From: an uncultured bacterium
GTDB lineage: Bacteria > Actinomycetota > Actinomycetes > S36-B12
Direction of reading: 5' to 3'
Length of the DNA: 55,715 nucleotides
Assembly (NCBI GenBank): GCA_903850745.1
Contig: CAINMH010000047.1
Span: 1-55,715 of the forward strand
The notes beneath the pieces were generated by a model that worked only from the letters and a program-made list of their open reading frames with translations, did not search any database and was not told where the DNA came from. The first letter of the stretch is position 1. Each line of letters starts with the position of its first letter. The position numbers and the translations under genes were made by a program. This document shows, piece after piece, positions 4,621-30,610 of the stretch.

Positions 4621-7607
4621 GCGACCAACAGCGCACAGCCAGCGATGAGGCTCGCGTTGTTCGGTGGGGATGTGCGCACCCCCAAGTTGCAGTGCAGCAT
4701 GTCGCTCATCTCGAATCGATCTGCCCTCTGCCCGACGCGGGTTGGGATGTGTGTGCACAGGCTGCGGACCCCGATCTTGCTGTGTCACGGCTTGCCCAGC
4801 TCTTGGACACAGCTTTCGGCGGAGCAATCGCCGAAGAGTTGCGCTCTGATCCCGAAGTAGGGTCGCGTCTCGTCGCCGTTCTTGGTGTCTCAGAGGCACT
4901 CGCTGACCATCTCCTTCGCCATCCACGTCAGTGGACCGCAATTGCTCACGCTGAGCTCACTCGGCCGGATGCACTGGACCTGCGTGCGGATCTACTCCGA
5001 GCAGTGGGGGCCGATCCCGAGAGCGCTGAGCCGCGGGCGGCCCTGTCGGAAGAGGCGGCTCTTCTTGCATTGCGGATTGCCTATCGCGAGTGTTTGCTAG
5101 GTACGGCCACTCGCGATGTTGCCTTGGGCGCATCGCTGGATGAGGTCGCTGGGGAACTCGCCGATCTTGCCGATGCCGCATTGGCCGCTGGCCTCGCGAT
5201 TGCCCGGAGTACCTTGGCGCCTGATGCAGAGCCCTGCCGCTTCACCGTAATTGGCATGGGTAAGTGCGGTGGACGCGAATTGAACTACGTGAGCGATGTT
5301 GATGTGATCTTTGTGGCCGAACCACTCCCAGGTGGCGATGAATCGGGTGCCATCAAGACCGCAACGCGCCTCGCCACCGGACTCATGCGGGCCTGCAATG
5401 CGGCCACGGTAGAGGGCTCTCTTTGGGAAGTAGATCCGGCGCTTCGTCCCGAGGGGAAGCAAGGGGTTCTCGTGCGCACTCTTGGGTCCCATGTTGACTA
5501 TTACGATCGCTGGGCAAAGACGTGGGAGTTTCAGGCTCTGTTGAAGGCACGGGTCAGTGCGGGTGATGGCGACCTGGGCGATGCGTACCTTGAGGCGATC
5601 TCGCCCATGGTCTGGCTCGCTGCGCAGCGTGAGGGTTTCGTCAATGACGTACAAGCTATGCGCCGCCGGGTTGAGTCGAACATCCCTGCGCAACATGCCG
5701 AACGTCAGTTAAAGCTGGGTCCAGGCGGATTGCGTGATGTGGAATTTTCGGTGCAGCTGCTTCAACTAGTCCATGGACGCAGTGACGTGATGCTCCGTAG
5801 CCCCACGACGCTAGTAGCGCTTGAGGCGTTGGCGACGTGGGGATATGTAGGGCTCGAAGACGCATCGACTCTTGGCGCTGCCTACAGATTCTTGCGAACG
5901 TTGGAACATCGGATTCAGATTTATGGGTTGAAGCGAACTCATGTGGTGCCCGAAACAGAGTCGGACTTGCGCCGGATCGGTCGGTCCATGGGATTTCGTT
6001 CTGACCCGGTTGCTGAATTGACCAAAGAGTGGCGCCGACATTCGCGTGAAGTTCGCCGAATCCACGAGAAACTCTTCTATCGCCCGCTCCTTAACGCGGT
6101 CGCGCGTTTGGGTCCGGGGGAGGCGAGGCTTACTCCCGCGGCGGCTAGGGATCGCCTGCAAGCGCTGGGCTACCTAGATCCTGCTGGGGCAATGCAGCAA
6201 CTAGAGGCTCTCACTAGCGGCGTGAGTAGGCGAGCGGCCATCCAAAGAACATTGCTCCCGGTGTTGCTCGGCTGGTTCGCCGATGCTCCCGATCCGGACG
6301 CAGGTCTGCTGGCATTCCGCAGAGTGAGTGACGCGCTGGGGTCGACACCGTGGTACCTACGTCTACTGCGAGATGAGTCTTCCACCGCAGAACGAATGGC
6401 GAGACTTCTGTCCTCGAGCGCGTTCGCAACGAATCTTCTGCTCAGTGCACCTGAGGCCGTGTCGCTGCTGGCTGATGAGAAGGAGCTGCAGCCGCGATCA
6501 GCTTGGCAGGTACGCACCGAGTGTGAAGCGGCTGCTGGACGAGCAGAGAATTTGCGAGGAGCAGCGGCGGCGGTGCGTGGCGTGCGACGGCGGGAGATGT
6601 TCCGAATTGCAGCCGGGTCGGTTCTCGGGCTCACAGATGTGGAGGCGATTGGGCGCGGACTCAGCGATATCGCAGATGCGTCGATTGCAGCCACTCTTGA
6701 TGCCGCAATACGCGCTGCTGAAGAGGAGCTGGGTCGTGCATTGCCTACCCGCATCGCCATCATTGGTATGGGCCGGCTGGGGGGCGCCGAACTCTCCTTC
6801 GGCAGCGATGCTGACGTCATGTTTGTGCATGATCCACTTCCTGGGATCGGTGACAAAGAAGCGACAGATATTGCTATGCAGGTCGTGGGTGAGCTTCGCA
6901 GGGTCCTGACGGAACCATCAACCGAACCAGCTCTGGAATTCGACGCGGATCTGCGACCAGAGGGCAAAAGTGGCCCGTTGGTGAGGACTCTCGCCTCGTA
7001 TGCGGCGTATTACGAGCGCTGGTCTGCACCGTGGGAGTCACAAGCCTTGGTGCGGGCCCGAGTGGTCGGTGGCGACCTAGATCTTGGTGCGAACTTCATC
7101 GCCATGGTGGACACATTGCGTTGGCCTGCCGATGGGCTTACGGATGAGGCCATTCGAGAGATTCGACGACTAAAGGCGCGAATGGAAGCTGAACGGCTGC
7201 CGCGTGGGGCAGATCCCACTTTGCACACCAAACTCGGCCGCGGGGGCCTCTCGGACGTCGAGTGGACCGCGCAGTTGCTTCAAATGCAGCACGCGCACAA
7301 GATCGCTGAGCTTCGAACGACGAACACACTGGAGGCTTTGCACGGGTGTGTGTCTGGAGGAGTATTGGGCGAAACTGACGCGGCCGCATTATCCAGTGCC
7401 TGGATTTTGGCAACGCGTGTTCGCGACGCCGTCACTCTCGCACGCGGAATCTCCAATGACGTCGTACCCACTGCTGGCCGCGACCTTGGCGGCGTCGCGC
7501 ACCTTCTGGGCTATCTGCCCAGCGAACGTGGGGCACTCGTGGAGGACTACCGTCGCGTGACTCGTCGAGCCCGGGTAGTGATGGATCGCGTGTTCTATGG
7601 CGTCTGA
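4617..7607 (+). CDS. glnE: Bifunctional glutamine-synthetase adenylyltransferase / adenylyl-removing enzyme
   Basis: About 1000 aa with two nucleotidyltransferase repeats (GKCGGRELNYVSDVDVIFV and GRLGGAELSFGSDADVMFV). GTG 4617 forms a GTGA overlap with the glnA2 stop. Confidence 0.9.
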   Translation: MSDQQRTASDEARVVRWGCAHPQVAVQHVAHLESICPLPDAGWDVCAQAADPDLAVSRLAQLLDTAFGGAIAEELRSDPEVGSRLVAVLGVSEALADHLLRHPRQWTAIAHAELTRPDALDLRADLLRAVGADPESAEPRAALSEEAALLALRIAYRECLLGTATRDVALGASLDEVAGELADLADAALAAGLAIARSTLAPDAEPCRFTVIGMGKCGGRELNYVSDVDVIFVAEPLPGGDESGAIKTATRLATGLMRACNAATVEGSLWEVDPALRPEGKQGVLVRTLGSHVDYYDRWAKTWEFQALLKARVSAGDGDLGDAYLEAISPMVWLAAQREGFVNDVQAMRRRVESNIPAQHAERQLKLGPGGLRDVEFSVQLLQLVHGRSDVMLRSPTTLVALEALATWGYVGLEDASTLGAAYRFLRTLEHRIQIYGLKRTHVVPETESDLRRIGRSMGFRSDPVAELTKEWRRHSREVRRIHEKLFYRPLLNAVARLGPGEARLTPAAARDRLQALGYLDPAGAMQQLEALTSGVSRRAAIQRTLLPVLLGWFADAPDPDAGLLAFRRVSDALGSTPWYLRLLRDESSTAERMARLLSSSAFATNLLLSAPEAVSLLADEKELQPRSAWQVRTECEAAAGRAENLRGAAAAVRGVRRREMFRIAAGSVLGLTDVEAIGRGLSDIADASIAATLDAAIRAAEEELGRALPTRIAIIGMGRLGGAELSFGSDADVMFVHDPLPGIGDKEATDIAMQVVGELRRVLTEPSTEPALEFDADLRPEGKSGPLVRTLASYAAYYERWSAPWESQALVRARVVGGDLDLGANFIAMVDTLRWPADGLTDEAIREIRRLKARMEAERLPRGADPTLHTKLGRGGLSDVEWTAQLLQMQHAHKIAELRTTNTLEALHGCVSGGVLGETDAAALSSAWILATRVRDAVTLARGISNDVVPTAGRDLGGVAHLLGYLPSERGALVEDYRRVTRRARVVMDRVFYGV

Positions 7608-8022
7608 AGAGTGGGTCGTCTTGGATGTGGCGGCTTTGCTGGTGCGTATTCAACTGGGGTTATCGGATCGCCGAGGACGTTCCATTGCTCATCAGAAGGA
7701 GGCGCAGCAGGGCCGCTCGCTTCAGCTCATCCTGGCCTGTGGAGCTTGCGGGTCGCCGACTGCTGGCGTCCTCGCGGATGCATCGTTAGCGACATACCTA
7801 CCTGATTCCTTCACAGATGACGCGATACGGCTCTGCGAGTCGGGATGGCTAAGTCGTTTCAGTTCCACAATGGGTGCTTCAGGTGACATCACCATGCCGT
7901 CGATGCCGATTCCGTGCTCTGGTTGTGGAGTGAGTGTGTCGATTGACGGCTCAGCGCTGTATGTGGTGTGGAACGCGGTGCCCCCTGGCGAAACGGTCGC
8001 CATTGCCCTGCAGCGGGCGTAG
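7597..8022 (+). CDS. Hypothetical 141-aa protein with two CxxC pairs (CGAC ... CSGC)
   Basis: The ORF fills the glnE-to-sulfotransferase gap exactly, and its ATG overlaps the glnE stop by 11 nt. Hydrophobic segments look protein-like (WVVLDVAALLVRIQLGL, ALYVVWNAV). An antisense ORF (7722..8003) shares its wobble positions, so coding status is uncertain. Confidence 0.4.
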   Translation: MASEEWVVLDVAALLVRIQLGLSDRRGRSIAHQKEAQQGRSLQLILACGACGSPTAGVLADASLATYLPDSFTDDAIRLCESGWLSRFSSTMGASGDITMPSMPIPCSGCGVSVSIDGSALYVVWNAVPPGETVAIALQRA

Positions 8023-11820: not shown

Positions 11821-12759
11821 CTACGCGCCAAGGCCGGTGCGCGCAGCGATGGCCTCCGCGTACAGCCGTCCGGCTCGATACGACGAGCGAACGAGGGGGC
11901 CGCTGAGCACCCCAAGCAAGCCAATTTCACGGGCGGTCTGCTCGAGAGCCACGAACTCGTCGGGGTGTACCCACCGGGCGACGGGGTGATGGCGCGACGA
12001 GGGGCGAAGGTACTGAGTGATCGTCACCAAGTCGCAACCAGCGTCATGCAAGTCCTGGAGAGCTTGGCTCACCTCATCGGGTTCTTCGCCCATGCCCAGG
12101 ATCAGATTTGACTTCGTGACAAGTCCGAAGGCGCGAGCTTGAGTGATGACGTCGAGCGAGCGCTCGTATTCGAAGGCTGGCCGCACAGTGCGGAAGAGCC
12201 GCGGAACGGTCTCAAGATTGTGGGCGAGCACCTGTGGCCCCGCTTCGAATACCTCTGTGAGCAAGGTGGGGTTGCCGCTGAAGTCAGGAATGAGAATCTC
12301 AACGCCGGTGTCTGGATTGAGTTCGTGTATTGCTCTGATCGTCTCGGCATACAGCCAAGCGCCTTCGTCTTCGAGATCATCACGCGCTACACCAGTGACA
12401 GTCGCATAACGCAGTTGCATGGTGCGAACCGATTCGGCAACGCGTCGCGGTTCATCGCGATCGAGGGGGGCTGGTTTCCCGGTGTCGATTTGGCAGAAGT
12501 CGCATCGCCGGGTGCATTGTTCGCCGCCAATGAGGAACGTTGCCTCACGGTCCTCCCAACATTCGTAGATGTTTGGGCAACCCGCTTCTTGACAGACAGT
12601 GTGCAGCCCTTCGCGCTTCACCAAAGCTTGCAGTGACAAGAACTCTGGTCCGGTCCGGGCACGCGTCTTTATCCACTCGGGCTTGCGCTCAATCGGAGTC
12701 TGAGCGTTGCGCGCCTCAATGCGAAGCAATTTACGCTGGCCGCTGCCCTCTGAGGTCAC
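11821..12759 (-). CDS. lipA: Lipoyl synthase
   Basis: Contains the radical-SAM CTRRCDFC motif and the [12 protein letters not shown] cluster. GTG 12759 forms a GTGA overlap with the lipB stop. The longer ORF to 12930 would run through lipB. Confidence 0.9.
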
Positions 12760-22052: not shown

Positions 22053-22874
22053 TCAGAGGCGAGCCAACGCCGCTTGGAGTGAGTTGAGCACAAGCATCGG
22101 CGCAATGCCGGATTGGGTGTCGAGATGCAAATCCACGAACGGGTGCAGGTCTAGGCGATCCAATACAAGATGCGCAGCGGGATCGGCAGGGCGTTGTGAA
22201 GCCCACCACCATTCGCGCGAGCGGTACGAAATTCGGTGCGCAGCCAAAGCTGCGGCGAGGGAAGATGTTGAATTCAGAAGCACGGGAGTCCGCCTTGCTG
22301 CGGCAGCCAGCAAAACCCCCGTCATGGCGGCGATGTCGTAGGCACCTACAGCGTCGAGTAGCGCGACCGTGTCACCAAGGTGCTTTCGCGCCAAGCGCAT
22401 AGCGTCGCGTACCGAACCCACCCGAATCATCCATGCCGTGGCATCGAGTTGGCGCTGCGTCGCTGCGGCAGCGTCGGTCGAGGTCAAGAGTGCAACCAAG
22501 GCGAGAGTGCCCGGGGCAAGGAACGCTGGGTCTTGCAGGACAAGGGCGTCGGCGCCTGAATCGACAGCGCGGTCGGCTGCAGCAGCTCCAGCAAAGAGAG
22601 CTGTGAGTGCATCCGCCGAAACATCTAGGACCGTGTAGTGGCTGCTGTCGTCGCGCCAAGAGTCAGCACTCAGGGCAACGACGCTGACAGACTGAGGTTC
22701 TTTCGGTGGCCAGATGCCTTGAACCGAAGCGAACCACTTCACGATGTCACCCACGTGTCCGAGCGACTCTAGGACTGCGACGGTCGAAGTGTCGGCGTAC
22801 TCAGGTGGCGTCACTGTGCTGATCCGCTCGATGAGTGACTCAAGTGGAGTCGAAGCGTCAGACACGGGACACAT
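22053..22874 (-). CDS. Degenerate CobT-like protein (nicotinate-nucleotide:DMB phosphoribosyltransferase fold, catalytic motifs not recognisable)
   Basis: The overall pattern resembles CobT (ALVLQD...LALVALLTS..., DIAAMTGVLLAAA, ...DLHLDTQSGIAPMLVL...). However, QDPAFLAPGT replaces GEMGIGNTT and LHLDTQSG replaces MRLGEGTG. It is only 273 aa and overlaps the S-component stop by 17 nt. It occupies the cobT position of the mycobacterial synteny block. Confidence 0.55.
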   Translation of the reverse strand: MCPVSDASTPLESLIERISTVTPPEYADTSTVAVLESLGHVGDIVKWFASVQGIWPPKEPQSVSVVALSADSWRDDSSHYTVLDVSADALTALFAGAAAADRAVDSGADALVLQDPAFLAPGTLALVALLTSTDAAAATQRQLDATAWMIRVGSVRDAMRLARKHLGDTVALLDAVGAYDIAAMTGVLLAAAARRTPVLLNSTSSLAAALAAHRISYRSREWWWASQRPADPAAHLVLDRLDLHPFVDLHLDTQSGIAPMLVLNSLQAALARL

Positions 22875-23670
22875 CTACCGTTCCGATGGGTTGTGTGTCA
22901 AAGACAGCTCGCCGCCCAGCTCTTCGTAGGACCGCCAACGTGGGCCTCCCCAAAACAGTAATCAGGACGACTGTGAGGATTGCCCGGGGGATATCGAAGG
23001 CGAGCGATGTAGCGATGGAGAACGCCAGCCAGTGCTGCAGATTGATGGCTAGACCCGCTCCAGGAACGAAGGCAATCGCCGTTGCAAGTCCGGTGGTGAA
23101 CGGCCAGATCCACAGATTCATAACAAGACCGTAGGCGTAGCAGGCAAGGCCACCGAAGGCAGCGGTGATGCCGATCTCTCGCCACGAACCGTCGCGGGGT
23201 CCGCGAATGAGGCCAGCGCCTAGGCCCACCCAGGCAGCAGCGATCATCTGAAAGGGCAGCCAAGGGCCGATCCCTCCTGTGATTAAGGCACTAGCACCCA
23301 TTGAAATCGCGCCAAGGCAGAATCCGAATCCCGGGCCTAGCGCTCGTGCCGAGAGAATCAGCACGACCCACATCGGTTCGATTCCGACAGTGCCGGCACC
23401 TAGTGGTCTCAGTACGCAGATCACGGCACTCAGCACACCGAGCATGGCAATGGACTTCGCGTTCATCCCGCCATCAGCCAATTGTGCTAGGACCACTGCA
23501 AGAAGCAGCGGCAGAAATGCAGCGAAGAACCATGGCGCATCTGTGGAATGAGCCATAGCTGCCGAGGATGCAGATGCCAATAATGGCCAGCCAAAGGCCA
23601 TGATTCCGACAACGGAGCACAGCGCTATGGCGACAGTGGATCGCGTTTGCAGTCGAACAGAGCGAGTCAT
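22858..23670 (-). CDS. Polytopic membrane protein, ECF-transporter S-component-like (substrate-capture subunit)
   Basis: 270 aa, about 8-9 predicted TM segments and no soluble domain. ATGA overlap with the ecfA stop. It follows T and A components in one operon. Confidence 0.65.
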   Translation of the reverse strand: MTRSVRLQTRSTVAIALCSVVGIMAFGWPLLASASSAAMAHSTDAPWFFAAFLPLLLAVVLAQLADGGMNAKSIAMLGVLSAVICVLRPLGAGTVGIEPMWVVLILSARALGPGFGFCLGAISMGASALITGGIGPWLPFQMIAAAWVGLGAGLIRGPRDGSWREIGITAAFGGLACYAYGLVMNLWIWPFTTGLATAIAFVPGAGLAINLQHWLAFSIATSLAFDIPRAILTVVLITVLGRPTLAVLRRAGRRAVFDTQPIGTVDVSRV

Positions 23671-25292
23671 CGAACTCCGCCTAAGGCTTGCTCGACCTCA
23701 GCAACGGTGAGCCACTCTTGCGGCGCTAGAACTTTCCAGACCTGCGGCGCAAACAGCGGGGACGCAGCAATGACATCACGTGTTGTCCCGTCCGCAACAA
23801 TCTCGCCGTCGGCAAGAACAATCACCCGGGTGGCCACCTCAGCGACAAGTTCCACGTCGTGGGTGGCGAGCACGACAGCGTGACCGCCCGCAGCAAGTGC
23901 GCGTAGTGCGACGACTAGTCGCGACTTGGTGAGGTAGTCCAGCCCGCGAGTGGGCTCGTCCAGCAACACAAGTGGCGGACGAGCGGCAAGAATGACAGCG
24001 AGCGCGAGTGCGAGTCGCTGACCTTCAGAAAGATCACGAGGGTGCTGCGAGACCGAGACATCAGGGGCAAGCGATCGCAGAATTGTGGCTGTCGTTCCGC
24101 GTGGCGCGCGTGCATCTCGGTCTGAGTCTTGGCACTCCGTGGCGACTGTGTCACGTGACAGCAGATCGCTGGGATCCTGTGGGACTAAGCCAACGCGGGA
24201 GATGAGCTCGGGTCCACGCATATCCGCGGGGTCTCCGCCGGAAACCAGAACTGTGCCTCGCGAACGTTTGTGCAATCCGACGAGAGTGCCCAACAGGGTC
24301 GACTTGCCGGCGCCATTGCGGCCCATGATGGCGAGAATCTCGCCTGGATCGACCGTGACCGTCACGTTATCCAAAGCTGTTTTCGTGCCATACGCGACAC
24401 TGACGGAACGCGCATCAAGAAGTCTTGGTGCCAGTGCGTCGACCGTTGTTCCTGCGGATGGATGACTGTTGTGTGCGGTGCGCAAGCGTTCGCGCAACGG
24501 GTCAGCATTGCGCCGCGCATCACGAACCGACAATGGCAAGGGGTTCCACCCGGCAAGTCTGCCGAGTTGGACCACGGGGGGCGCGACGGAGGCAGTGCGC
24601 ATAATGTCCGCCGCCGTGCCAATTTGAACAGGTGCCCCGTTACCGGGAACATGGATAATTCGATCGGCGTATTGCACCACTCGCTCAAGTCGATGTTCTG
24701 CAAGCACGACAGTTACGCCCAGGTCGTGAACAAGACGCTGAAGTGCGGCTAGAACCTCTTCGGCTGCACCTGGATCTAAGGCGCTGGTGGGTTCGTCTAG
24801 GACGAGGATGCGCGGATGAGTTGTCATCACCGCACCGATTGCGACCCGTTGGCGTTGCCCGCCGGACAGGCTCAAGAGTGAGCGGTCGCGAAGTTCGGCT
24901 AGACCTAAGAGATCGACAATCTCCTCCACTCGCTGTCTCATCACAGATGGAGCCAGACCAAGGCACTCCATGCCGTAGGCGAGCTCGTCTTCGACGTACT
25001 CTGTGACAAATCCGTTCATGGGATCCTGCGGAACAACCCCGACGACATCCGCAAGATCTCGCGGGGGATGCGTTGCCGTGTCGCGCCCATCGACTACGAC
25101 TCGTCCTGAAAGGGTGCCGCCGGAGAAGTGTGGAACTAGACCGTTGATCGCGTGAAGCAGAGTGGTCTTGCCGCTGCCAGTAGGACCTACAACGAGTGCT
25201 AGTTCGCCCTCCTGAATGTGGAGGGTGGTGTGCGCAATGACCGGAATGGCGCTGCCGTCGTATGCGATCGTGACGTCCTCAAACCGGATCAT
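23667..25292 (-). CDS. ecfA: ECF/ABC transporter ATPase, fused EcfA1-EcfA2
   Basis: Has two ABC cassettes: Walker A GPTGSGKTT and GRNGAGKST, signatures LSGGQRQR and LSEGQRLA, and Walker B ILVLDEPT and LVLLDEPT. Confidence 0.9.
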   Translation of the reverse strand: MIRFEDVTIAYDGSAIPVIAHTTLHIQEGELALVVGPTGSGKTTLLHAINGLVPHFSGGTLSGRVVVDGRDTATHPPRDLADVVGVVPQDPMNGFVTEYVEDELAYGMECLGLAPSVMRQRVEEIVDLLGLAELRDRSLLSLSGGQRQRVAIGAVMTTHPRILVLDEPTSALDPGAAEEVLAALQRLVHDLGVTVVLAEHRLERVVQYADRIIHVPGNGAPVQIGTAADIMRTASVAPPVVQLGRLAGWNPLPLSVRDARRNADPLRERLRTAHNSHPSAGTTVDALAPRLLDARSVSVAYGTKTALDNVTVTVDPGEILAIMGRNGAGKSTLLGTLVGLHKRSRGTVLVSGGDPADMRGPELISRVGLVPQDPSDLLSRDTVATECQDSDRDARAPRGTTATILRSLAPDVSVSQHPRDLSEGQRLALALAVILAARPPLVLLDEPTRGLDYLTKSRLVVALRALAAGGHAVVLATHDVELVAEVATRVIVLADGEIVADGTTRDVIAASPLFAPQVWKVLAPQEWLTVAEVEQALGGVR

Positions 25293-26362
25293 TGCCTGCC
25301 TCTATCTGGGGGTAGTGGTGTCAACCATGCGGGAAGCAGGCAAAGCGCCAGGGCGCAGATGGCGATCAGCGGCACCTGTGGCATGGTGAAAATGCTTGGC
25401 CCCTGCATGGTGATTGACGAGGCTGTTGCAATCGCGGCAATTGCACAGACCAAGCCCACGCCCGTTGTCGTCCACTCGGGTGTACGCCACGGGTCGCGGC
25501 GATATACCGTGCGGATGCGAGCGCGACTTGCAATGATGAAAGCCACCACAATCATCGCGATGCTTCCGCTGAGCAACGACACCATCGCCGTCGTGGGGAT
25601 TCTTTCGTCCAGCGCGCTGTACGCCCCGATCGCGGCGCACAGGAGTGCGGCGAGAAATGTGCCACCGATCATTCTGCGTCTCGCGTCGCTGGCGTGGCCC
25701 ATACGTCCATAGCCGCGTGAATCCATGGCGGCTGCCAGATGTAGGGACTTTTCTAGAGCACCCTCCAGGACTGGAACTGCAACTGAACCGAAGCCACGAA
25801 GTCCTCGTGTGTCACGACCGCGCAATCGACGCGCTGTGCGCAGCCGATCAGCATCGCCGACAATCTGGGGCGCGAACGTCAACGCGACAACTACCGCCAC
25901 ACCAGTCTCGTACAGGGCAGCCGGTGTGGCCTTAAGTAGTCGGCTGGGTGACGCGAGTGAATTGGCCGCCCCTACGCAGGCGAGTATCGCGGCCAATCGC
26001 ATGCCGTCGAAGATCAAACTCAGTAGGGCGGGCTCTGTGACTTCCCCTCCGAAACGCACACCCGCGGCCCAGGCCGGCAAAGCTAGTGAGGGGAGGCTGA
26101 ACAAAACCCGGCCACCGTCCGGAGCGCCAAAGGCGATGCCGAGCACTACCCGAATTGCGATAACCCACACACCCAAGATGAGAAACAGCCGGAAGGAACG
26201 ACCCCAAGCCGCGTCGGGTCGGCGGGCTGCGACAACGTATGCCGCCACCGCAACAATGCAACCAAGCACCAAGGGATTGGTTGTCCTACTTGCCATGACA
26301 GCAAGGCCAAGCGCCCACGCCCACCAAGCGAATGGATTCAACCACCGCGGGCGACCCATCAT
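25289..26362 (-). CDS. ecfT: Energy-coupling factor transporter transmembrane (T) component, CbiQ/EcfT family, with an extra C-terminal TM extension
   Basis: Contains coupling-helix motifs ARRLRGRD and AMDSRGYG. The ATG at 26362 gives an ATGA overlap with the upstream stop (longest ORF starts at 26386). About 100 extra residues with TM segments lie at the C-terminus. Confidence 0.8.
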
Positions 26363-27198
26363 CGACGGCCTCGCGAACGTGTCCACGCGAGAACACCCAG
26401 CACGATGATGCCGATGAGCACGACGATGGCAAGGAGTGGTCCTGAACCCGATGAGGGCGAGCTCGAACTTGCTGCTTGGGCGACCTCTTCCGGGGTTACG
26501 GGAATTGACGGGCTCGGTTGGACCGCCTGTGACTGCGGTGCAGCGGGCTCCGGGGACGGTTCGGTTCTTGGCTCCACGGTGGGTTCGATACTTGGCTTAG
26601 TGCTTGGCTCCACGGTGGGTTCGATACTTGGCTCAGTAGTTGGCACAGTGCTTGGCTCAGTATTTGGTTCAACGCTTGGCTCCGTGCTCTGCTCAATTGT
26701 GTCGCGCCCACATCCGGTAGCGGGATACCCGCTGAGACCACATACGAAACCACGCTCGGATCGGATTTCCGTGATGGCCCGCAGTGCATCGAAACCAGTT
26801 GAGCCGTCGGCCACTTCTGCACACGCAACAACCAGATTCGGCGGGGATTCGCCGGCAGGTGCGTCAGCGGTCGTTCCGTAGTCGAGGACCACCGCGATTC
26901 GCAAAATGTCTGCTTGCGGTGCGACGTCGCCACACGCACGGTCATAAACATCCGCAACGTCGACTCGAGGCGGTGTTGTTGCGTCAACGCCAGTCACCGC
27001 GAGGCGCCACCCTTCGATGATCCCCTCATCTGCTGGCCTAAATGCCGGACCAAGCGGAGAAAAACTCCATTCCTGTGTGGTGGAGGTCCAGTAGGTCCAA
27101 TAGCGAAACTCGCTTGCCGTGGCAGGCGCGGCGAGCACTGCGGACGTCAAGACAATCAGACCCCCGCAGTGCAGTGCCAGCGAGCGCGACAAGGTCAT
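26359..27198 (-). CDS. Exported, C-terminally membrane-anchored protein with a globular N-domain and a (T/S)EPS(V/I)EP repeat stalk
   Basis: Has a signal peptide ([28 protein letters not shown]), a domain starting [10 protein letters not shown]...[16 protein letters not shown], a Pro/Glu/Thr stalk, and then [29 protein letters not shown] overlaps at both ends. Confidence 0.75.
26560..26695 (-). repeat. In-frame tandem repeat (36-nt unit, degenerate 18-nt sub-unit) encoding the stalk
   Basis: CTTGGCTCCACGGTGGGTTCGATACTTGGCT is identical at 26567-26597 and 26603-26633, followed by degenerate copies. Confidence 0.8.
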
Positions 27199-28271
27199 AC
27201 GCGTTGGGTCCCCAAAAGTCTTGAGACCAGATTGATTCGCTGTGGCCCGAAGGCTCTCGGTGAGTTGTCCGTGGCACGTGCTACCAGCAACAAGGTTCCG
27301 ATAGCAGCGGGCATGGTGTCGTCCCCGCTGAGTATGTAGTCGTTGACATTGCGAAGGAGCAAGCGGGTTGCTGCCTGCATCGACGCGTTGCCGAAACCTG
27401 CGTTGCGCAGGGCAATGATGGTGAAGGCAGTGGCATTCCAGTCAGGCTGTGTAGCGTCCATCAGCCCAGGGATTGCCCCGTTGTTTCGCGTGAGTGAACT
27501 GACGAGGAACCGCGACATGGCTCCTGCCGCACCCACGTCACGCGAACATTGCGCTGAAGGCGCAGCCTGGGTTTGTGTTTGAGAAAGCGCAGTCAACGGG
27601 CCCGTGAATCCAATGAGTGCTGCGGCAGTACTGAAGCCATCTGGGACTGATTGTTCACTGAAGCCAAGTCCACCGAAGTGGTTCCTGGATACTGAACAGT
27701 CAGCGACGCGATCTCGAATCCATGCTGCGCCGCGCCGAATGGCGGTTCGTAAGGATTTGGAGTCTCCATCGTGTGCGCGAAGCGCTTGCATGACTAGGCC
27801 GGTGGACACTGGGTCTGACGCCAGACCAGCCAGCCATGGCCAACCGCCATCGACTCGCTGAGAGCCCACAAGCCAACGCACTGCTGCGTGGCTGGCCCTG
27901 AACTCACCTACCGCTCCAAGGGCGATCGCTGCTACGGCGGTGGAGTTGGAGTCGGTACCTGTGTACGTCGTCAGGTCGGCGGCTGTGCAGGAACCTGTTC
28001 GGTACGCCATGAACGCACCACTCGCGCATTGTTGCTTTAGGAGCCACGACACTGCCGATTCGGGCGGTTCAACGCCGAATGTCGTCAGACCGATAAGTGC
28101 GTAGGACTGACGGAGAACGCCGTCATACGTGGGGTCCGCTGCCCCGAAAAGCCCGGTGTCCGAATGGCTCGCTGGGGCGGTGGCCGCAATGGCAGGGGCC
28201 GAAGGCACTCCAAAGGCGATGCCACTGGCAACAAGCGCGGCAAGAAAGACATGGCGAAAACGAGTAAACAT
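27195..28271 (-). CDS. Secreted alpha/alpha-toroid protein (prenyltransferase / squalene-cyclase repeat fold)
   Basis: Has a signal peptide ([30 protein letters not shown]) and repeated QxxxGG(W/F) units ([17 protein letters not shown]). AGAGG lies 7 nt upstream of the ATG. It is the first gene after the riboswitch. Confidence 0.75.
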
Positions 28272-28359: not shown

Positions 28360-28480
28360 GAAGAGCCGCTTGCGTCCGCCAGGTGCTCCGACTTACTGCC
28401 CAGTTAGACACTGAGCGGTTCACGGTTGCGGGTCAGCGCCGGATTTGCACCGGCTTCCCCTGGATATCGAACGCATACGT
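28360..28480 (-). promoter_or_regulatory. Cobalamin (B12) riboswitch aptamer (the leader spans about 28272-28500)
   Basis: The minus strand reads TGCGT-tcgatatcca-GGGGAAGCCGGTGCAAATCCGGCGCTGACCCGCAACCGTGAACC-GCTCAG-tgtctaa-CTGGGC-AGTAAGTCGGAGCACCTGGCGG-ACGCA. This contains the conserved GGGAAGCCGGTGxxAATCCGGCxxxxxCCCGC core, a B12-box-like AGTCGGAGCACCTGGC, and a closing P1 helix (TGCGT/ACGCA, plus-strand 28471-28475 and 28371-28375). Confidence 0.85.
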
Positions 28481-28574
28481 ATGAAGTTGTCCCGACAGCG
28501 AACCACAGCAAGTAGGTGCACGTCAACACGCCTCGCTCGAATGTGACAGGAGATACTGGGCGAAGGAGGTCACT

Positions 28575-28778
28575 ATGGACTGGAATTGGAAATACATCGA
28601 TGCCTCGGGTGCCGAGGTTGTGGGCCCGCTGGGTGATCAGAGGTTCCCGACGCAGGCTGATGCGGAGACCTGGGTCGGCGAGACGTGGCAGGACCTGCTT
28701 GCGGCCGGTGTCGAAGCCGTGACGCTGTATGAGGTCAACCGAGCGGTTTATGGACCCATGGGCTTGCGCCCGGAGTGA
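28575..28778 (+). CDS. Small conserved hypothetical protein (67 aa)
   Basis: A strong SD (AAGGAGG) lies 5 nt upstream of the ATG. The composition is protein-like (MDWNWKYIDASGAEVVG...AVTLYEVNRAVYGPMGL). Confidence 0.65.
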   Translation: MDWNWKYIDASGAEVVGPLGDQRFPTQADAETWVGETWQDLLAAGVEAVTLYEVNRAVYGPMGLRPE

Positions 28779-28781
28779 GAC

Positions 28782-29372
28782 CTATTTGCTAGGTGGCGGT
28801 GCGGGAGTCCCTCTGCGCACCTGCGGTTTGGGTAGTCGCAACCGACGCATCTGTAGAAGTCGCAGAACGGCATAGAGGGAAACGCCCTTGCGATCCTGCT
28901 TGTCGGGGAAATATACGCGCAATGAGCGATGTAAACGAAAAAGCACACTCGCGGTGTCCACGATGACCAGCACGAGGACGGTAAACCACGCGATGCTGAC
29001 GAATGCACTCACCTGCGAGTTTGGGATGAATCCGAGAACAAGGATTCCGACAGCGATAAAGATGAAGTATTCAGCGAGACTGAACTTGCTGTCGACAAAA
29101 TCGCGGACGTACCTCCGCACAGGGCCACGATCGCGCATGGGCAAGTGCTTCTCATCGCCCACCATAATCCCGGCGCGAGCATCGGCACGCGCCTGGCGAT
29201 CGCGTTCACGAGCGGCTGCCTTAGCCGCCTTGGGATCCTTCGGCACTCTCAGCGCCTGTCTCCGAGCATCCTCGGCTTCACGGCGCGAGGGCGTTGCGCG
29301 CCCTTTGCCCGAGACGTCTGTGGGTCCAGATTCAGCGGGCACGTTCTGTGCTTCGGAGCGCTTCTTAAACAT
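28782..29372 (-). CDS. DUF3043-type membrane protein (Rv2206-like)
   Basis: Has a Lys/Arg-rich N-terminus (GKGRATPSRREAEDARRQ), RRYVRDFVDSKFSLAEYF and two TM segments. Confidence 0.8.
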   Translation of the reverse strand: MFKKRSEAQNVPAESGPTDVSGKGRATPSRREAEDARRQALRVPKDPKAAKAAARERDRQARADARAGIMVGDEKHLPMRDRGPVRRYVRDFVDSKFSLAEYFIFIAVGILVLGFIPNSQVSAFVSIAWFTVLVLVIVDTASVLFRLHRSLRVYFPDKQDRKGVSLYAVLRLLQMRRLRLPKPQVRRGTPAPPPSK

Positions 29373-29419
29373 GAGGGCAGCCTAGTTGTTGTGTGTCGGG
29401 TATGGGGCCGGGGGAGAAA

Positions 29420-30610
29420 TTAGTCGCGAGGAGCGAGGCCGGGGAGGGCGAGCATGCGGTCGAGCGCGACACGGGCCCAGCGAGCTTCTTCGGGTTCCAC
29501 CGTGATGCGATTTACGACTATGCCATTGACCAGATTCTCGAGAGTCCACGCTAGGTGCGGGAGATCGATGCGGTTCATCGTGGAGCAGAAGCACACGGCC
29601 TTCTCCAAGTAGACGATCTCCTGATCGGGGTGCTCTATCGCGAGACGCCGCACCAGGTTCAATTCGGTGCCAACGGCCCATTTCGAACCAGCAGGTGCCG
29701 CCGCGATCGCGTTGATGATGTATTCAGTCGAACCCACTTCGTCAGCCAGGGACACGACTTCATGTGTGCATTCCGGGTGCACGATCACGCGCACTCCAGG
29801 AACGCGATCTCGAACATCGCGAACGCTATCAGCCGTAAACCGGCCATGAACTGAGCAGTGTCCGCGCCAGAGGATCATGCGCGCATCACGTAGTTGTTCT
29901 TCTGATAGTCCGCCACCCGGTTTGTGCGGATCGAATACGACGCAGTCGTCACGTGTCATTCCGAGATCGCGAATCGCGGTGTTGCGGCCAAGATGCTGGT
30001 CAGGCAGGAAGAACACCTGCTCGCCCTGAGCGAATGCCCATTCGAGTGCGCGTTTTGCGTTGCTGGACGTACACACCGCGCCGCCATGTCGTCCGGTAAA
30101 CGCTTTGATCGAGGCGGAGGAGTTCATGTACGTGATAGGGATGACGGACTTCGCAATGCCCGCAGCCTCAAAAACGTCCCACGCGTCTTCGACCTGATGG
30201 ATGGCCGCCATATCTGCCATGGAGCAGCCCGCAGCGAGATCCGGTAGGAGCACCTGTTGGCTGTCACTGGTCAGGATATCTGCACTCTCAGCCATGAAAT
30301 GGACGCCACAGAACACGATGAATTCGGCCTCTGGATGCGCGGCGGCCTGCTGTGACAACTTGTAAGAGTCGCCTGTCGTGTCAGCAAACTGGATCACTTC
30401 GTCGCGCTGATAGTGATGCCCGAGGATGTAGAGACGATCGCCAAGAATTGCGCGCGCGGTCCGAACGCGCTCGACCAGATTTGGGTCCGAAGCAGGCGGG
30501 AGGTCGCCGGGGCACTCCACGCCGGTCTCACTGTCGGGATCTGCATTTTTTCCCAGAAGCAGCAAGGCAAGCGGTGAAGGCTTCGGTTCGGCGAAGGTGC
30601 CACTCTCCAT
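29420..30610 (-). CDS. nadA: Quinolinate synthase
   Basis: Contains LALLLLGKNADPDSETGVECPGDLP, GHHYQRDEVIQFAD, CGVHFMAESADIL, HPEC and CSTM. Confidence 0.9.
   Translation of the reverse strand: MESGTFAEPKPSPLALLLLGKNADPDSETGVECPGDLPPASDPNLVERVRTARAILGDRLYILGHHYQRDEVIQFADTTGDSYKLSQQAAAHPEAEFIVFCGVHFMAESADILTSDSQQVLLPDLAAGCSMADMAAIHQVEDAWDVFEAAGIAKSVIPITYMNSSASIKAFTGRHGGAVCTSSNAKRALEWAFAQGEQVFFLPDQHLGRNTAIRDLGMTRDDCVVFDPHKPGGGLSEEQLRDARMILWRGHCSVHGRFTADSVRDVRDRVPGVRVIVHPECTHEVVSLADEVGSTEYIINAIAAAPAGSKWAVGTELNLVRRLAIEHPDQEIVYLEKAVCFCSTMNRIDLPHLAWTLENLVNGIVVNRITVEPEEARWARVALDRMLALPGLAPRD

Follow-up and report, generated by a model that had tools for sequence, protein, structure and literature searches.

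We propose, at a probability of about one half, that an exported alpha/alpha-toroid protein of 358 aa serves a B12-riboswitch-controlled ECF importer as the first of its two extracytoplasmic accessory proteins, and that it belongs to a candidate corrinoid capture module. Its gene occupies positions 27195..28271 (minus strand) of the window, by which we mean the whole 55,715-nucleotide stretch of DNA analysed here. The protein probably helps to capture B12-type cofactors; this role is a prediction, in which we infer the binding.

Few microbes make B12 and many require it, and the mode of its capture shapes whole communities. ECF transporters are textbook importers that need no extracellular binding protein, and to our knowledge the bacterial surface B12-capture proteins known so far are Gram-negative only (BtuB with BtuG, BtuH and BtuJ, together with periplasmic BtuF). 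The toroid and its partner, a protein of the SCO2322 family, are a candidate new class of bacterial corrinoid-binding proteins, and the module they belong to may be an exception to the ECF paradigm. The pair also offers a functional annotation for proteins that are now mislabelled as prenyltransferases or terpene cyclases.

The toroid gene directly follows a cobalamin riboswitch

A cobalamin riboswitch aptamer was detected in the operon leader at 28361..28517 on the minus strand (Rfam RF00174, 43.3 bits against a gathering score of 31.5 bits, E=1.2e-7). R1, a covariance model built in this analysis, matched at 28363-28483 with 106 bits. The core reads GGGAAG..GGTG..AATCC..CTGA-CCCGCAACCGT, and the B12 box is AGTCGGAGCACCTGGC. 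Since the 3' end of the riboswitch is located 90 nt upstream of the toroid ATG, the toroid ORF is the first cistron, in agreement with the initial annotation. Neither a simple search for terminators nor MFE folding of the leader was informative as to the expression platform.

It had been argued beforehand that homologues usually found outside B12-regulated contexts would speak against a corrinoid-related role. The opposite was observed: a riboswitch of the cobalamin clan was present directly upstream of the toroid gene, on the same strand, in 76 of the 82 fetched loci, and six further loci, found via the partner domain, also carry one. Fifty-seven of the riboswitch loci lay outside the training set of the search model. 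Beyond these upstream elements, 0.99 Mb held one extra full-length match (L077) and one weak partial match (L049). Rfam's own thresholds confirmed the riboswitch in 14/18 MAG loci and in 5/11 Streptomyces/Kitasatospora loci; corresponding leader positions elsewhere matched RF00174, RF01482 or RF01689 (clan CL00101). No riboswitch was detected in the informative loci L003, L062, L067 and L073, the first of which has a TetR gene upstream in its place.

The protein is a single exported toroid, distantly related to terpene cyclases

Judged by eye, the N-terminus of the toroid protein has the features of a Sec signal peptide: it contains positive residues and a hydrophobic core, and AT follows its AxA site; neither a lipobox Cys nor a twin-arginine motif was seen there. 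Two QW-type motifs are present, QQCASGAF (residues 80-87) and QRVDGGW(PW) (residues 138-146), and 125 such motifs occur in total among the 58 members of the toroid family. ORF, signal and both motifs are therefore as first described. That the motifs stand above chance follows from profile matches to SQHop_cyclase_C, to squalene-hopene cyclase and to the SCO2321 family. Pfam SQHop_cyclase_C matched the window protein with E=9.8e-5, under its gathering score, and matched 53/58 family members. A hallmark N-terminal motif reads GLxGxxDPTYDGVxRQ. Four cysteines (C82, C95, C192 and C242) are invariant across the 58 homologues, consistent with an exported, disulfide-bonded protein, and D46, D50, R54, Q55, D107, N109, D153, S156, T157 and D277 are near-invariant polar residues.

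An AlphaFold2 model of the protein (mean pLDDT 88.4, pTM 0.87) contains 12-13 helices, in agreement with the alpha6/alpha6 toroid that had been predicted from the repeats. The mature protein, of about 330 residues, is a single toroid and not a two-toroid (beta-gamma) architecture; it is unanchored, its sequence stopping where the toroid ends. NCBIfam NF053823 (SCO2321_fam, 'SCO2321 family membrane protein') showed clear homology to it at 200.6 bits and E=3.7e-59, over positions 3-351 of 405. Judged by this score against the 300-bit cutoff, the window protein is a SCO2321-family homologue outside the NF053823 equivalog. Since the alignment ends at position 351 of 405, the C-terminal membrane or cell-wall anchor from which the family takes its name is missing here. 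NF053823 and the partner family NF040672/PF28005 are catalogued without an assigned function, and the gene order of the two families ahead of ECF genes is the same in the window. Full-text literature searches found no paper on the SCO2321 or SCO2322 families, and searches on DUF4430, on squalene oxidase repeat with cobalamin and on ECF/riboswitch/Actinobacteria returned nothing on these proteins.

The best sequence and fold matches were class II terpene cyclases (squalene-hopene cyclase, drimenyl diphosphate synthase, MstE) and prenyltransferase beta subunits, which share QW-type repeats and the alpha6/alpha6 toroid with the window protein. Against PDB sequences, the toroid family profile matched squalene-hopene cyclase with E=1.5e-27. 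The best 50 Foldseek matches in the PDB were class II terpene cyclases, squalene/oxidosqualene cyclases, the complement C3d/C4d TED, RabGGTase-beta and a few other alpha/alpha-toroid proteins. Terpene cyclases were matched with E=3e-7 and TMq up to 0.54; TM-scores of merely 0.4-0.54 indicate that the relationship is distant. The complement TED matched in fold (TMt about 0.6), yet its CGEQ thioester motif, like the DxDD and DDxxD motifs of the cyclases, was found in 0/58 family members.

These neighbours, and database names such as 'prenyltransferase/squalene oxidase repeat-containing protein' and 'terpene cyclase/mutase family protein', would fit a true class II terpene cyclase or prenyltransferase acting on an isoprenoid, with an incidental riboswitch link. 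We regard this as very improbable. The protein is a single domain rather than a beta-gamma didomain and lacks DxDD and DDxxD in 58/58 members; its signal peptide directs it out of the cell, away from prenyl diphosphate substrates, which are found in the cytoplasm. Within about 10 kb on either side of the ORF there is no isoprenoid or terpenoid gene, and the B12/ECF context is kept in about 80 independent loci. A cyclase or prenyltransferase identity is thus effectively refuted, and the initial annotation was right to doubt such a role, as it was on the surrounding genes.

The toroid gene opens an operon for a partner protein and an ECF importer

Six translationally coupled genes, whose start and stop codons overlap or abut, follow one another in the order toroid, SCO2322-family protein, ECF T component, fused ATPase, vitamin-type S component and CobT-like protein. 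The initial annotation missed the membrane-tethered SCO2322-family gene and the complete importer (T, fused A-A, S) downstream. NadA, DUF3043, glycerate kinase, the M17 peptidase and a lipoamide-dehydrogenase-like protein are encoded in the neighbourhood along with the ECF and CobT-like genes.

The SCO2322-family protein (279 aa; 26359..27198, minus strand) matched NF040672 with 125 bits against a cutoff of 85, and its homologues carry precomputed Pfam PF28005. Its start codon, read from the sequence, overlaps the toroid stop codon (ATGA). A signal peptide is followed by a Cys-rich extracytoplasmic domain of 140 aa, a Pro/Thr/Glu-rich linker and a C-terminal transmembrane anchor that ends in a positive tail. 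The AlphaFold2 model of the domain (pLDDT 85.8) has the element order b-b-a-b-b-a-b-b, and Foldseek found no fold match for it in the PDB (best E=2.1).

The T component (365 aa; 25289..26386, minus strand) is CbiQ-like (PF02361, 28 bits against a cutoff of 25) and is kept at the same position in related loci. The ATPase (541 aa; 23667..25292, minus strand) consists of two fused A domains (two ABC_tran domains, E=1.2e-55) and also matched ECF_ATPase_1 and ECF_ATPase_2 with 291 bits. The S component (270 aa; 22858..23670, minus strand) matched PF12822 ECF_trnsprt with E=2.1e-12. Among its orthologues, 21/24 matched PF12822 and 0/24 CbiM; by these Pfam assignments it is of the vitamin type and not of the CbiM/NikM metal type. 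Neither its single sequence nor a profile matched solved S components, so its substrate is not assignable by homology. The last coupled gene (22053..22874, minus strand) encodes a CobT-like protein (DBI_PRT, nucleotide-loop assembly; PF02277, E=8.2e-33). It is short, matching PF02277 at positions 133-316 of 329 only, and NCBIfam cobT scores far under its cutoff.

T, two A domains and S are encoded together in the window, as in dedicated (group I) ECF transporters. The classical ECF definition includes no extracytoplasmic binding protein; the window module instead carries two conserved exported proteins, co-transcribed with it. ECF-CbrT of Lactobacillus delbrueckii, likewise of the ECF type, is reported to import cobalamin and cobinamide (PMC5997447). 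The window module differs from it in being dedicated (own T, fused A-A) and in its two extracytoplasmic proteins, and its S component has no sequence similarity to solved S components, CbrT included if among PDB structures.

The module is widely conserved and its accessory domains are recombined

Relatives of the toroid are encoded in at least 588 species-representative genomes, which are actinobacterial. The order toroid, SCO2322, T, A-A, S is retained in 61 loci that extend far enough to show it; L021 and L053 contain both accessory genes without an adjacent ECF module. CobU, CobT and CobS genes come after the transporter in L001, and CobT-like genes were found in L021, L022 and L053 as well as in the window.

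Between lineages, the accessory domains differ by fusion, duplication and circular permutation. Single chains join the toroid to the SCO2322-like domain, in both orders, in P0063, P0262, P0266, P0261 and P0304; in P0063 and P0262 the toroid is N-terminal and the small domain C-terminal, and in P0304 (L087) the toroid is duplicated within the chain. Such fusions and the ATGA overlap indicate coupling of the toroid and the SCO2322 protein. Relatives bear LPXTG, TM or CWB2 cell-wall anchoring modules; the Streptomyces toroid P0059 ends in a TM tail, and P0049 carries LPATG together with a TM segment. Toroids of the window clade and of Nanopelagicales are without the TM or LPXTG anchor of Streptomyces and other relatives, so that the tethered partner would be required to retain them at the surface.

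The likeness to transcobalamin is one of fold class

The initial annotation had presented the toroid protein as a possible bacterial counterpart of the transcobalamin alpha-domain. The fold class, an alpha/alpha toroid, stood up; specific kinship did not. No transcobalamin (TC), intrinsic factor (IF) or haptocorrin (HC) appeared among the best 50 Foldseek matches in the PDB, Pfam Cobalamin_bind (PF01122) had no match at E<=10 in any of the 58 members, and the toroid family profile retrieved no TC, IF or HC chain from PDB sequences even at E<=10. With hhalign, the toroid family aligned to 27 mammalian TCN2 sequences (an alignment of low diversity, Neff 1.9) at a probability of 0.2%. On these four comparisons specific homology to transcobalamin was rejected, the toroid family having no detectable similarity to the known B12-binding proteins TC, IF and HC. 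The likeness is of fold class only and is common to many unrelated toroid proteins; the QW motifs of the window toroid are typical of the cyclase/prenyltransferase/TED branch. One relative, P0304, gave a sub-threshold Cobalamin_bind match (E=1.8e-4, 21 bits against a cutoff of 25), which hhalign did not reproduce.

The small domain was compared in the same way. With hhalign, the SCO2322 domain was aligned to the TC beta-domain both in its native order and after permutation, and reached E=0.02 and a probability of 2%; the deeper unpermuted small-domain family reached E=0.2 and the C-terminus of P0063 E=0.6. With the Foldseek best of E=2.1, this kinship was rejected as evidence and kept as a lead only.

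At the level of architecture, TC, IF and HC and the toroid pair alike consist of an extracellular, disulfide-bonded 12-helix alpha/alpha toroid and a small beta-rich domain, the disulfides being predicted here from invariant cysteines, and both are tied to B12 supply. P0063 and P0262 share TC's order of toroid then small domain, and if circular permutation is allowed for, the element order of the small domain, bb-a-bb-bb, is that of the TC beta-domain (PMC11107200). TC, IF and HC are single chains, whereas the window toroid and the small domain are two separate chains, the latter tethered. Separated alpha and beta fragments of the mammalian carriers bind cobalamin individually, and cobalamin is required for them to associate; in these carriers the small beta-domain, not the toroid, contacts cobalamin first and strongest (PMC11107200).

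The toroid and the tethered SCO2322 domain might be imagined as a bacterial analogue of transcobalamin split over two chains, which would hold the ligand in an alpha-ligand-beta sandwich and dock on the S component, but we consider this quite unlikely. In this scheme the corrinoid would first be gripped by the small beta-rich domain and then covered by the toroid, a sequence of events that we rate just as low. Fusion order, unpermuted element order and the P0304 match are consistent with such an analogue; no statistically significant similarity accompanies them. In the strongest version, the SCO2322-like domain would be a circularly permuted relative of the TC beta-domain (DUF4430 type), and eukaryotic B12 carriers would descend from, or share ancestry with, the bacterial pair. 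Should the pair work like transcobalamin, it would bear on the origin of animal B12 carriers.

Proposed capture of corrinoids and alternative roles

In the role that we favour, capture of corrinoids for the importer, B12 shortage would lead to expression of the operon, which B12 would switch off through the riboswitch. The toroid would be secreted by the Sec pathway, with no anchor of its own in the window lineage, while the SCO2322-family protein would expose its domain at the cell exterior, attached through a long Pro/Thr-rich tether that is flexible. At the cell surface the two would cooperate, probably in complex with each other, in trapping scarce corrinoids, whether cobalamin, cobinamide or other cobamides. 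The corrinoid would be passed to the membrane S component, with the T component and the fused ATPase powering import, and the CobT-like product (CobU/CobT/CobS in relatives) might then complete or remodel the cofactor. The binding of each fragment in mammalian carriers is a precedent for a two-part binder (PMC11107200).

A similar logic applies to BtuG, BtuH and BtuJ of Bacteroides, which are described as surface proteins of B12 uptake loci that scavenge cobamides for a membrane transporter (PMC6143338, PMC8941943, bioRxiv 2025.07.01.662609). These are Gram-negative outer-membrane lipoproteins feeding TonB-dependent BtuB, with experimentally established B12 binding; here the transporter is of the ECF type, the envelope is Gram-positive and toroid binding is predicted. 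Profile and fold searches with the toroid module did not return BtuG, BtuH or BtuJ.

A corrinoid substrate, binding by toroid and partner and hand-over to the S component are deductions, and a different cargo has to be weighed. The import could be of cobalt or of some other small molecule related to B12, for example a lower-ligand base, with the toroid and SCO2322 protein as its receptor. Cobalamin riboswitches commonly control cobalt importers as well, CbiMNQO of the ECF type included (PMC2667541), the T component falls in the CbiQ Pfam family, and B12-making Streptomyces carry the module too; the operon-coupled CobT-like gene belongs to a family that handles the lower-ligand base. We nevertheless hold such a cargo to be unlikely. 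The S component belongs to PF12822 and not to CbiM/NikM, and no CbiN is present. The acI/Nanopelagicales lineage is without B12 biosynthesis, and its riboswitch-preceded ECF module has already been proposed as a cobalamin transporter (PMC5301498); these freshwater actinobacteria have no need of cobalt for B12 synthesis, which, together with the CobU/CobT/CobS or CobT-like genes of the module's loci, favours a corrinoid over cobalt. A toroid of 330 residues with a domain of 140 residues would also be very large for a metal-ion receptor, and a metal site rich in His, Cys or Asp was not seen, the four invariant Cys being more likely disulfides.

The toroid could also do something other than capture a cargo. 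It could be an extracytoplasmic enzyme that acts chemically on corrinoids or on their carriers before uptake, perhaps jointly with the SCO2322 domain, for instance by release from complexes, removal of the upper ligand, or trimming of the lower ligand or of glycan-like conjugates. Among the characterised toroids closest in fold, enzymes are the majority (terpene cyclases, prenyltransferase beta subunits, and six-hairpin hydrolases, MmpH and rhamnosidases among them), the near-invariant polar residues could build an active site, and BtuM, which is reported to decyanate B12, is a precedent for uptake-coupled chemistry (PMC6072759). The same residues fit ligand binding equally well, however; all catalytic signatures tested are absent, non-enzymatic toroids (complement TED, TC alpha-domain) show that the fold often merely binds, and the context suggests no candidate substrate besides a corrinoid. 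We therefore doubt both an enzymatic role and the activities listed. A purely structural role, in which the toroid docks on the SCO2322 domain or the cell wall and positions or stabilises the ECF complex without touching the substrate, seems improbable to a like degree, as does the attendant idea that recognition across the thick actinobacterial envelope rests wholly with the S component or the SCO2322 domain. The strongest conservation of the toroid family is in polar residues and not in a hydrophobic docking patch, the in-chain toroid duplication of P0304 (L087) suggests a dosage of binding sites, and riboswitch co-regulation this tight is rare for pure scaffolds. Such a structural role would fit the LPXTG, TM or CWB2 cell-wall anchors of relatives, the primacy of the beta-domain over the toroid in mammalian cobalamin contact (PMC11107200), and locus L086. 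There the gene immediately after the riboswitch encodes P0280, a chain of two SCO2322-like domains and CWB2 with no toroid; L086 is a short contig, and its sole toroid-like ORF lies upstream, at the contig start.

An exported toroid heads a riboswitch-controlled ECF operon

The 358-residue ORF singled out by the initial annotation is real (27195..28271, minus strand). Its first 29 residues, which precede AT, have the features of the proposed Sec signal peptide, as judged by eye, and both QW-type motifs quoted there were found (QQCASGAF, residues 80-87; QRVDGGW, residues 138-144). The B12 riboswitch noted there was also confirmed: a match to the cobalamin model RF00174 (43.3 bits, gathering score 31.5) occupies 28361..28517, likewise on the minus strand, and ends 90 nt ahead of the toroid start codon. 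Within an ATGA at 27195-27198, the toroid stop overlaps the start of a gene for an SCO2322-family protein (26359..27198, minus; NF040672, 125 bits, cutoff 85). In this partner a signal peptide precedes a 140-residue domain that holds four invariant cysteines; a linker rich in Pro, Thr and Glu then leads to a transmembrane anchor at the C terminus. Next on the minus strand, each overlapping or abutting the preceding gene, are genes for a CbiQ-like ECF T component (25289..26386), the fused double ATPase (A-A; 23667..25292), a vitamin-type S component (22858..23670; PF12822) and a short CobT-like protein (22053..22874). This string makes the toroid gene the first of a six-gene, riboswitch-controlled ECF importer operon. 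The S component falls outside the CbiM/NikM metal type, and comparison with solved S components gave no sequence match, even with a 24-sequence profile.

The CobT-like protein has only 273 aa, aligns to no more than DBI_PRT profile positions 133-316 out of 329, scores far under the NCBIfam cobT cutoffs and might be a phosphoribosyltransferase that is truncated or repurposed; its gene overlaps that of the S component by 17 nt. Genes for NadA (quinolinate synthase) and a DUF3043 protein lie upstream of the operon (28782-30610, minus), as they do just upstream of it in a Nanopelagicales locus (L001, 865-6411). We regard this synteny as conserved because the nearest toroid homologue in L001 is only ~42% identical to that of the window. 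A divergent 67-aa ORF upstream of the riboswitch (28575-28778, plus) has a positional equivalent in L001, an unannotated 72-aa gene on the opposite strand (7520-7738).

The toroid is related to QW-motif proteins but lacks cyclase motifs

Searches with the toroid returned 95 proteins, labelled at source as hypothetical, 'prenyltransferase/squalene oxidase repeat-containing', 'terpene cyclase/mutase family' or 'LPXTG-motif cell wall-anchored'. In NCBIfam it proved related to the 'SCO2321 family membrane protein' (E=3.7e-59), although its 200.6 bits fall short of the 300 set for the equivalog and the alignment ends at profile position 351 of 405. Pfam gave SQHop_cyclase_C alone, sub-threshold (E=9.8e-5). 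A 58-sequence family alignment (A1) revealed a conserved N-terminal motif (G-L-x-G-x-x-D-P-T-Y-D-G-V-x-R-Q), conserved polar residues (D107/N109/T111, D153/S156/T157, D277/T281) and four invariant cysteines, as expected of an exported, disulfide-bonded protein. The closest relatives of the window toroid (96% and 78% identity) are of metagenomic origin. Three database homologues (P0005, P0006 and P0008) have some 86 additional residues; in P0005, the only one of them looked at, this N-terminal surplus stems from gene callers' translation through the riboswitch leader, and these extensions look like annotation artefacts rather than domains.

The AlphaFold2 model built from A1 was confident (mean pLDDT 88.4, pTM 0.87, 12-13 helices) and predicts the alpha6/alpha6 toroid that had been claimed. 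Foldseek matches in the PDB included class II terpene cyclases, among them drimenyl diphosphate synthase (E=3e-7), MstE and the squalene-hopene and oxidosqualene cyclases (TMq 0.52-0.54). RabGGTase-beta, some six-hairpin hydrolases and, at TMt about 0.6, the thioester domains of complement C3d/C4d also matched. The A1 profile matched squalene-hopene cyclase sequences through repeated QW-type units (E=1.5e-27), and sequence places the toroid in the QW-motif branch of cyclases, prenyltransferases and thioester domains. The catalytic or reactive signatures of these groups (DxDD, DDxxD and CGEQ) were found in 0/58 family members. That the toroid is a true terpene cyclase can be all but dismissed, in line with the initial doubt about such a role.

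The riboswitch and gene order are conserved

With each species represented by a single genome, a toroid relative was identified in at least 588 genomes. All 80 fetched loci came from Actinomycetota or uncultured MAGs, with Streptomyces, Kitasatospora, Nanopelagicales and further freshwater MAGs represented; one homologue of the partner protein carries the label freshwater metagenome. At Rfam thresholds, a cobalamin-clan riboswitch (Cobalamin, AdoCbl or AdoCbl-II) was detected just upstream of the toroid gene in 14/18 MAG loci and 5/11 Streptomyces/Kitasatospora loci. With a covariance model trained on the window riboswitch and 19 Rfam-detected ones, a coding-strand match (32-122 bits) was obtained upstream of the toroid in 76/82 loci, 57 of them outside the training set, at roughly 100-600 nt as judged from coordinates. 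Homologues are therefore usually found in B12-regulated contexts. Elsewhere in 0.99 Mb the model gave one extra full-length match (L077) and one weak partial second (L049). Two of the six negative loci had no upstream sequence; the other four (L003, L062, L067 and L073) had upstream sequence in which the model detected no cobalamin riboswitch. In L003 (Peterkaempfera bronchialis), a divergent-looking TetR-family regulator gene stands just upstream in the riboswitch's stead, suggesting a changed mode of regulation in some Streptomycetaceae. The second L077 riboswitch (Streptomyces misionensis, 12410-12518, 64 bits), just downstream of the ECF cassette, presumably controls another B12-related gene.

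The order toroid, SCO2322, T, A-A, S was kept wherever the contig was long enough, except in L021, L053 and L073, and all five genes were present in 61 loci. In L021 and L053 a CobT-like gene comes after the toroid and SCO2322 genes, and the fetched 6 kb contain no ECF T, A or S genes, so the accessory pair can be separated from the transporter genes. CobU, CobT and CobS genes continue the operon in a Nanopelagicales genome. Strains of acI lack B12 biosynthesis, and their riboswitch-preceded ECF module has been proposed as a cobalamin transporter, with no mention of the two accessory proteins (Kang et al., PMC5301498).

Toroid and small domain are repeatedly combined

The AlphaFold model of the SCO2322 domain is confident (pLDDT 85.8), has the order b-b-a-b-b-a-b-b and found no structural match in the PDB (best E 2.1). 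A toroid homologue, P0063, carries an extra C-terminal domain that hhalign aligned with the SCO2322 domain over 105 columns in permuted order (E=1e-8), against only 45 in native order; by this comparison the two domains are related by circular permutation. Used as a query against 1.84 billion representatives, the P0063 domain recovered 1,716 proteins at E<=1e-3. A 44-sequence alignment drawn from these (A5) matched the SCO2322 domain over 98 columns in permuted order (E=3e-16) and 37 in native order, which confirms that the window domain (26689-27126, minus) is a circular permutant of the much larger A5 family. That family comprises stand-alone tethered proteins, tandem domain copies, two-toroid proteins, CWB2 cell-wall modules and toroid fusions in both orders.

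Six loci reached via A5-type domains (L084-L089; five independent, L085 duplicating L084) all had an upstream cobalamin riboswitch (49-77 bits; 42.8 bits by Rfam for L084). Five of them extend far enough to reveal neighbouring genes, and each of these contained toroid sequence and ECF genes; in L087 and L088 the toroid itself is circularly permuted. Repeated fusion and co-occurrence provide strong evidence that toroid and small domain act together.

A two-protein surface module with a proposed role in corrinoid uptake

It is almost certain that the toroid works outside the cytoplasm as an accessory to a B12-regulated ECF uptake system. The substrate is likely a corrinoid rather than cobalt, since the S component is of vitamin type, B12 auxotrophs carry the module and nucleotide-loop genes are linked to it. 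Plausibly, the toroid and its tethered partner would bind the corrinoid and pass it to the S component. Toroids of the window's clade have no anchor of their own, which fits retention via the partner. We consider a cobalt or lower-ligand receptor improbable. We give similarly low odds to an enzyme processing its substrate outside the cell, and a toroid serving purely as scaffold seems just as unlikely.

Both families, SCO2321 and SCO2322, are already catalogued and named in NCBIfam and Pfam, with no function given, and full-text literature searches found no paper on them. To our knowledge, the accepted picture of ECF importers includes no conserved extracytoplasmic partner proteins. The operon would thus specify a riboswitch-controlled ECF vitamin importer whose two-protein surface module is, as far as these searches reach, undescribed; the module is widespread, mis-annotated and directly testable.

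Resemblance to transcobalamin

The toroid had been proposed as a bacterial counterpart of the transcobalamin (TC) alpha-domain. The fold class held up; a specific relationship found no support. The A1 profile retrieved no TC, intrinsic factor or haptocorrin chain from PDB sequences even at E<=10, none of the three was among the best 50 Foldseek matches in the PDB, Pfam Cobalamin_bind matched 0/58 family members, and hhalign of A1 against a TC alignment gave a probability of 0.2%. This alignment, gathered with human TCN2 (identical to PDB 7QBF), is shallow, mammalian TCN2 alone having been returned. These negatives together confine the resemblance to the level of fold class.

P0304 (918 aa; L084, 8001-10757) unites two toroids with an SCO2322-like domain and a TM anchor. 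Its second toroid (residues 621-826) gave a sub-threshold Cobalamin_bind match (E=1.8e-4, 21 bits, cutoff 25), which hhalign against the mammalian TC alignment did not reproduce. All sequence comparisons of the small domain with the TC beta-domain were non-significant (E 0.02 to 0.6). The unpermuted small-domain family has the element order bb-a-bb-bb, equal to that of the TC beta-domain (hairpin, helix, hairpin, hairpin; PMC11107200), and a possible kinship between the two is taken as a lead rather than a result. According to the same paper, the alpha and beta fragments of the mammalian carriers, once isolated, each bind cobalamin and join only when it is present (PMC11107200).
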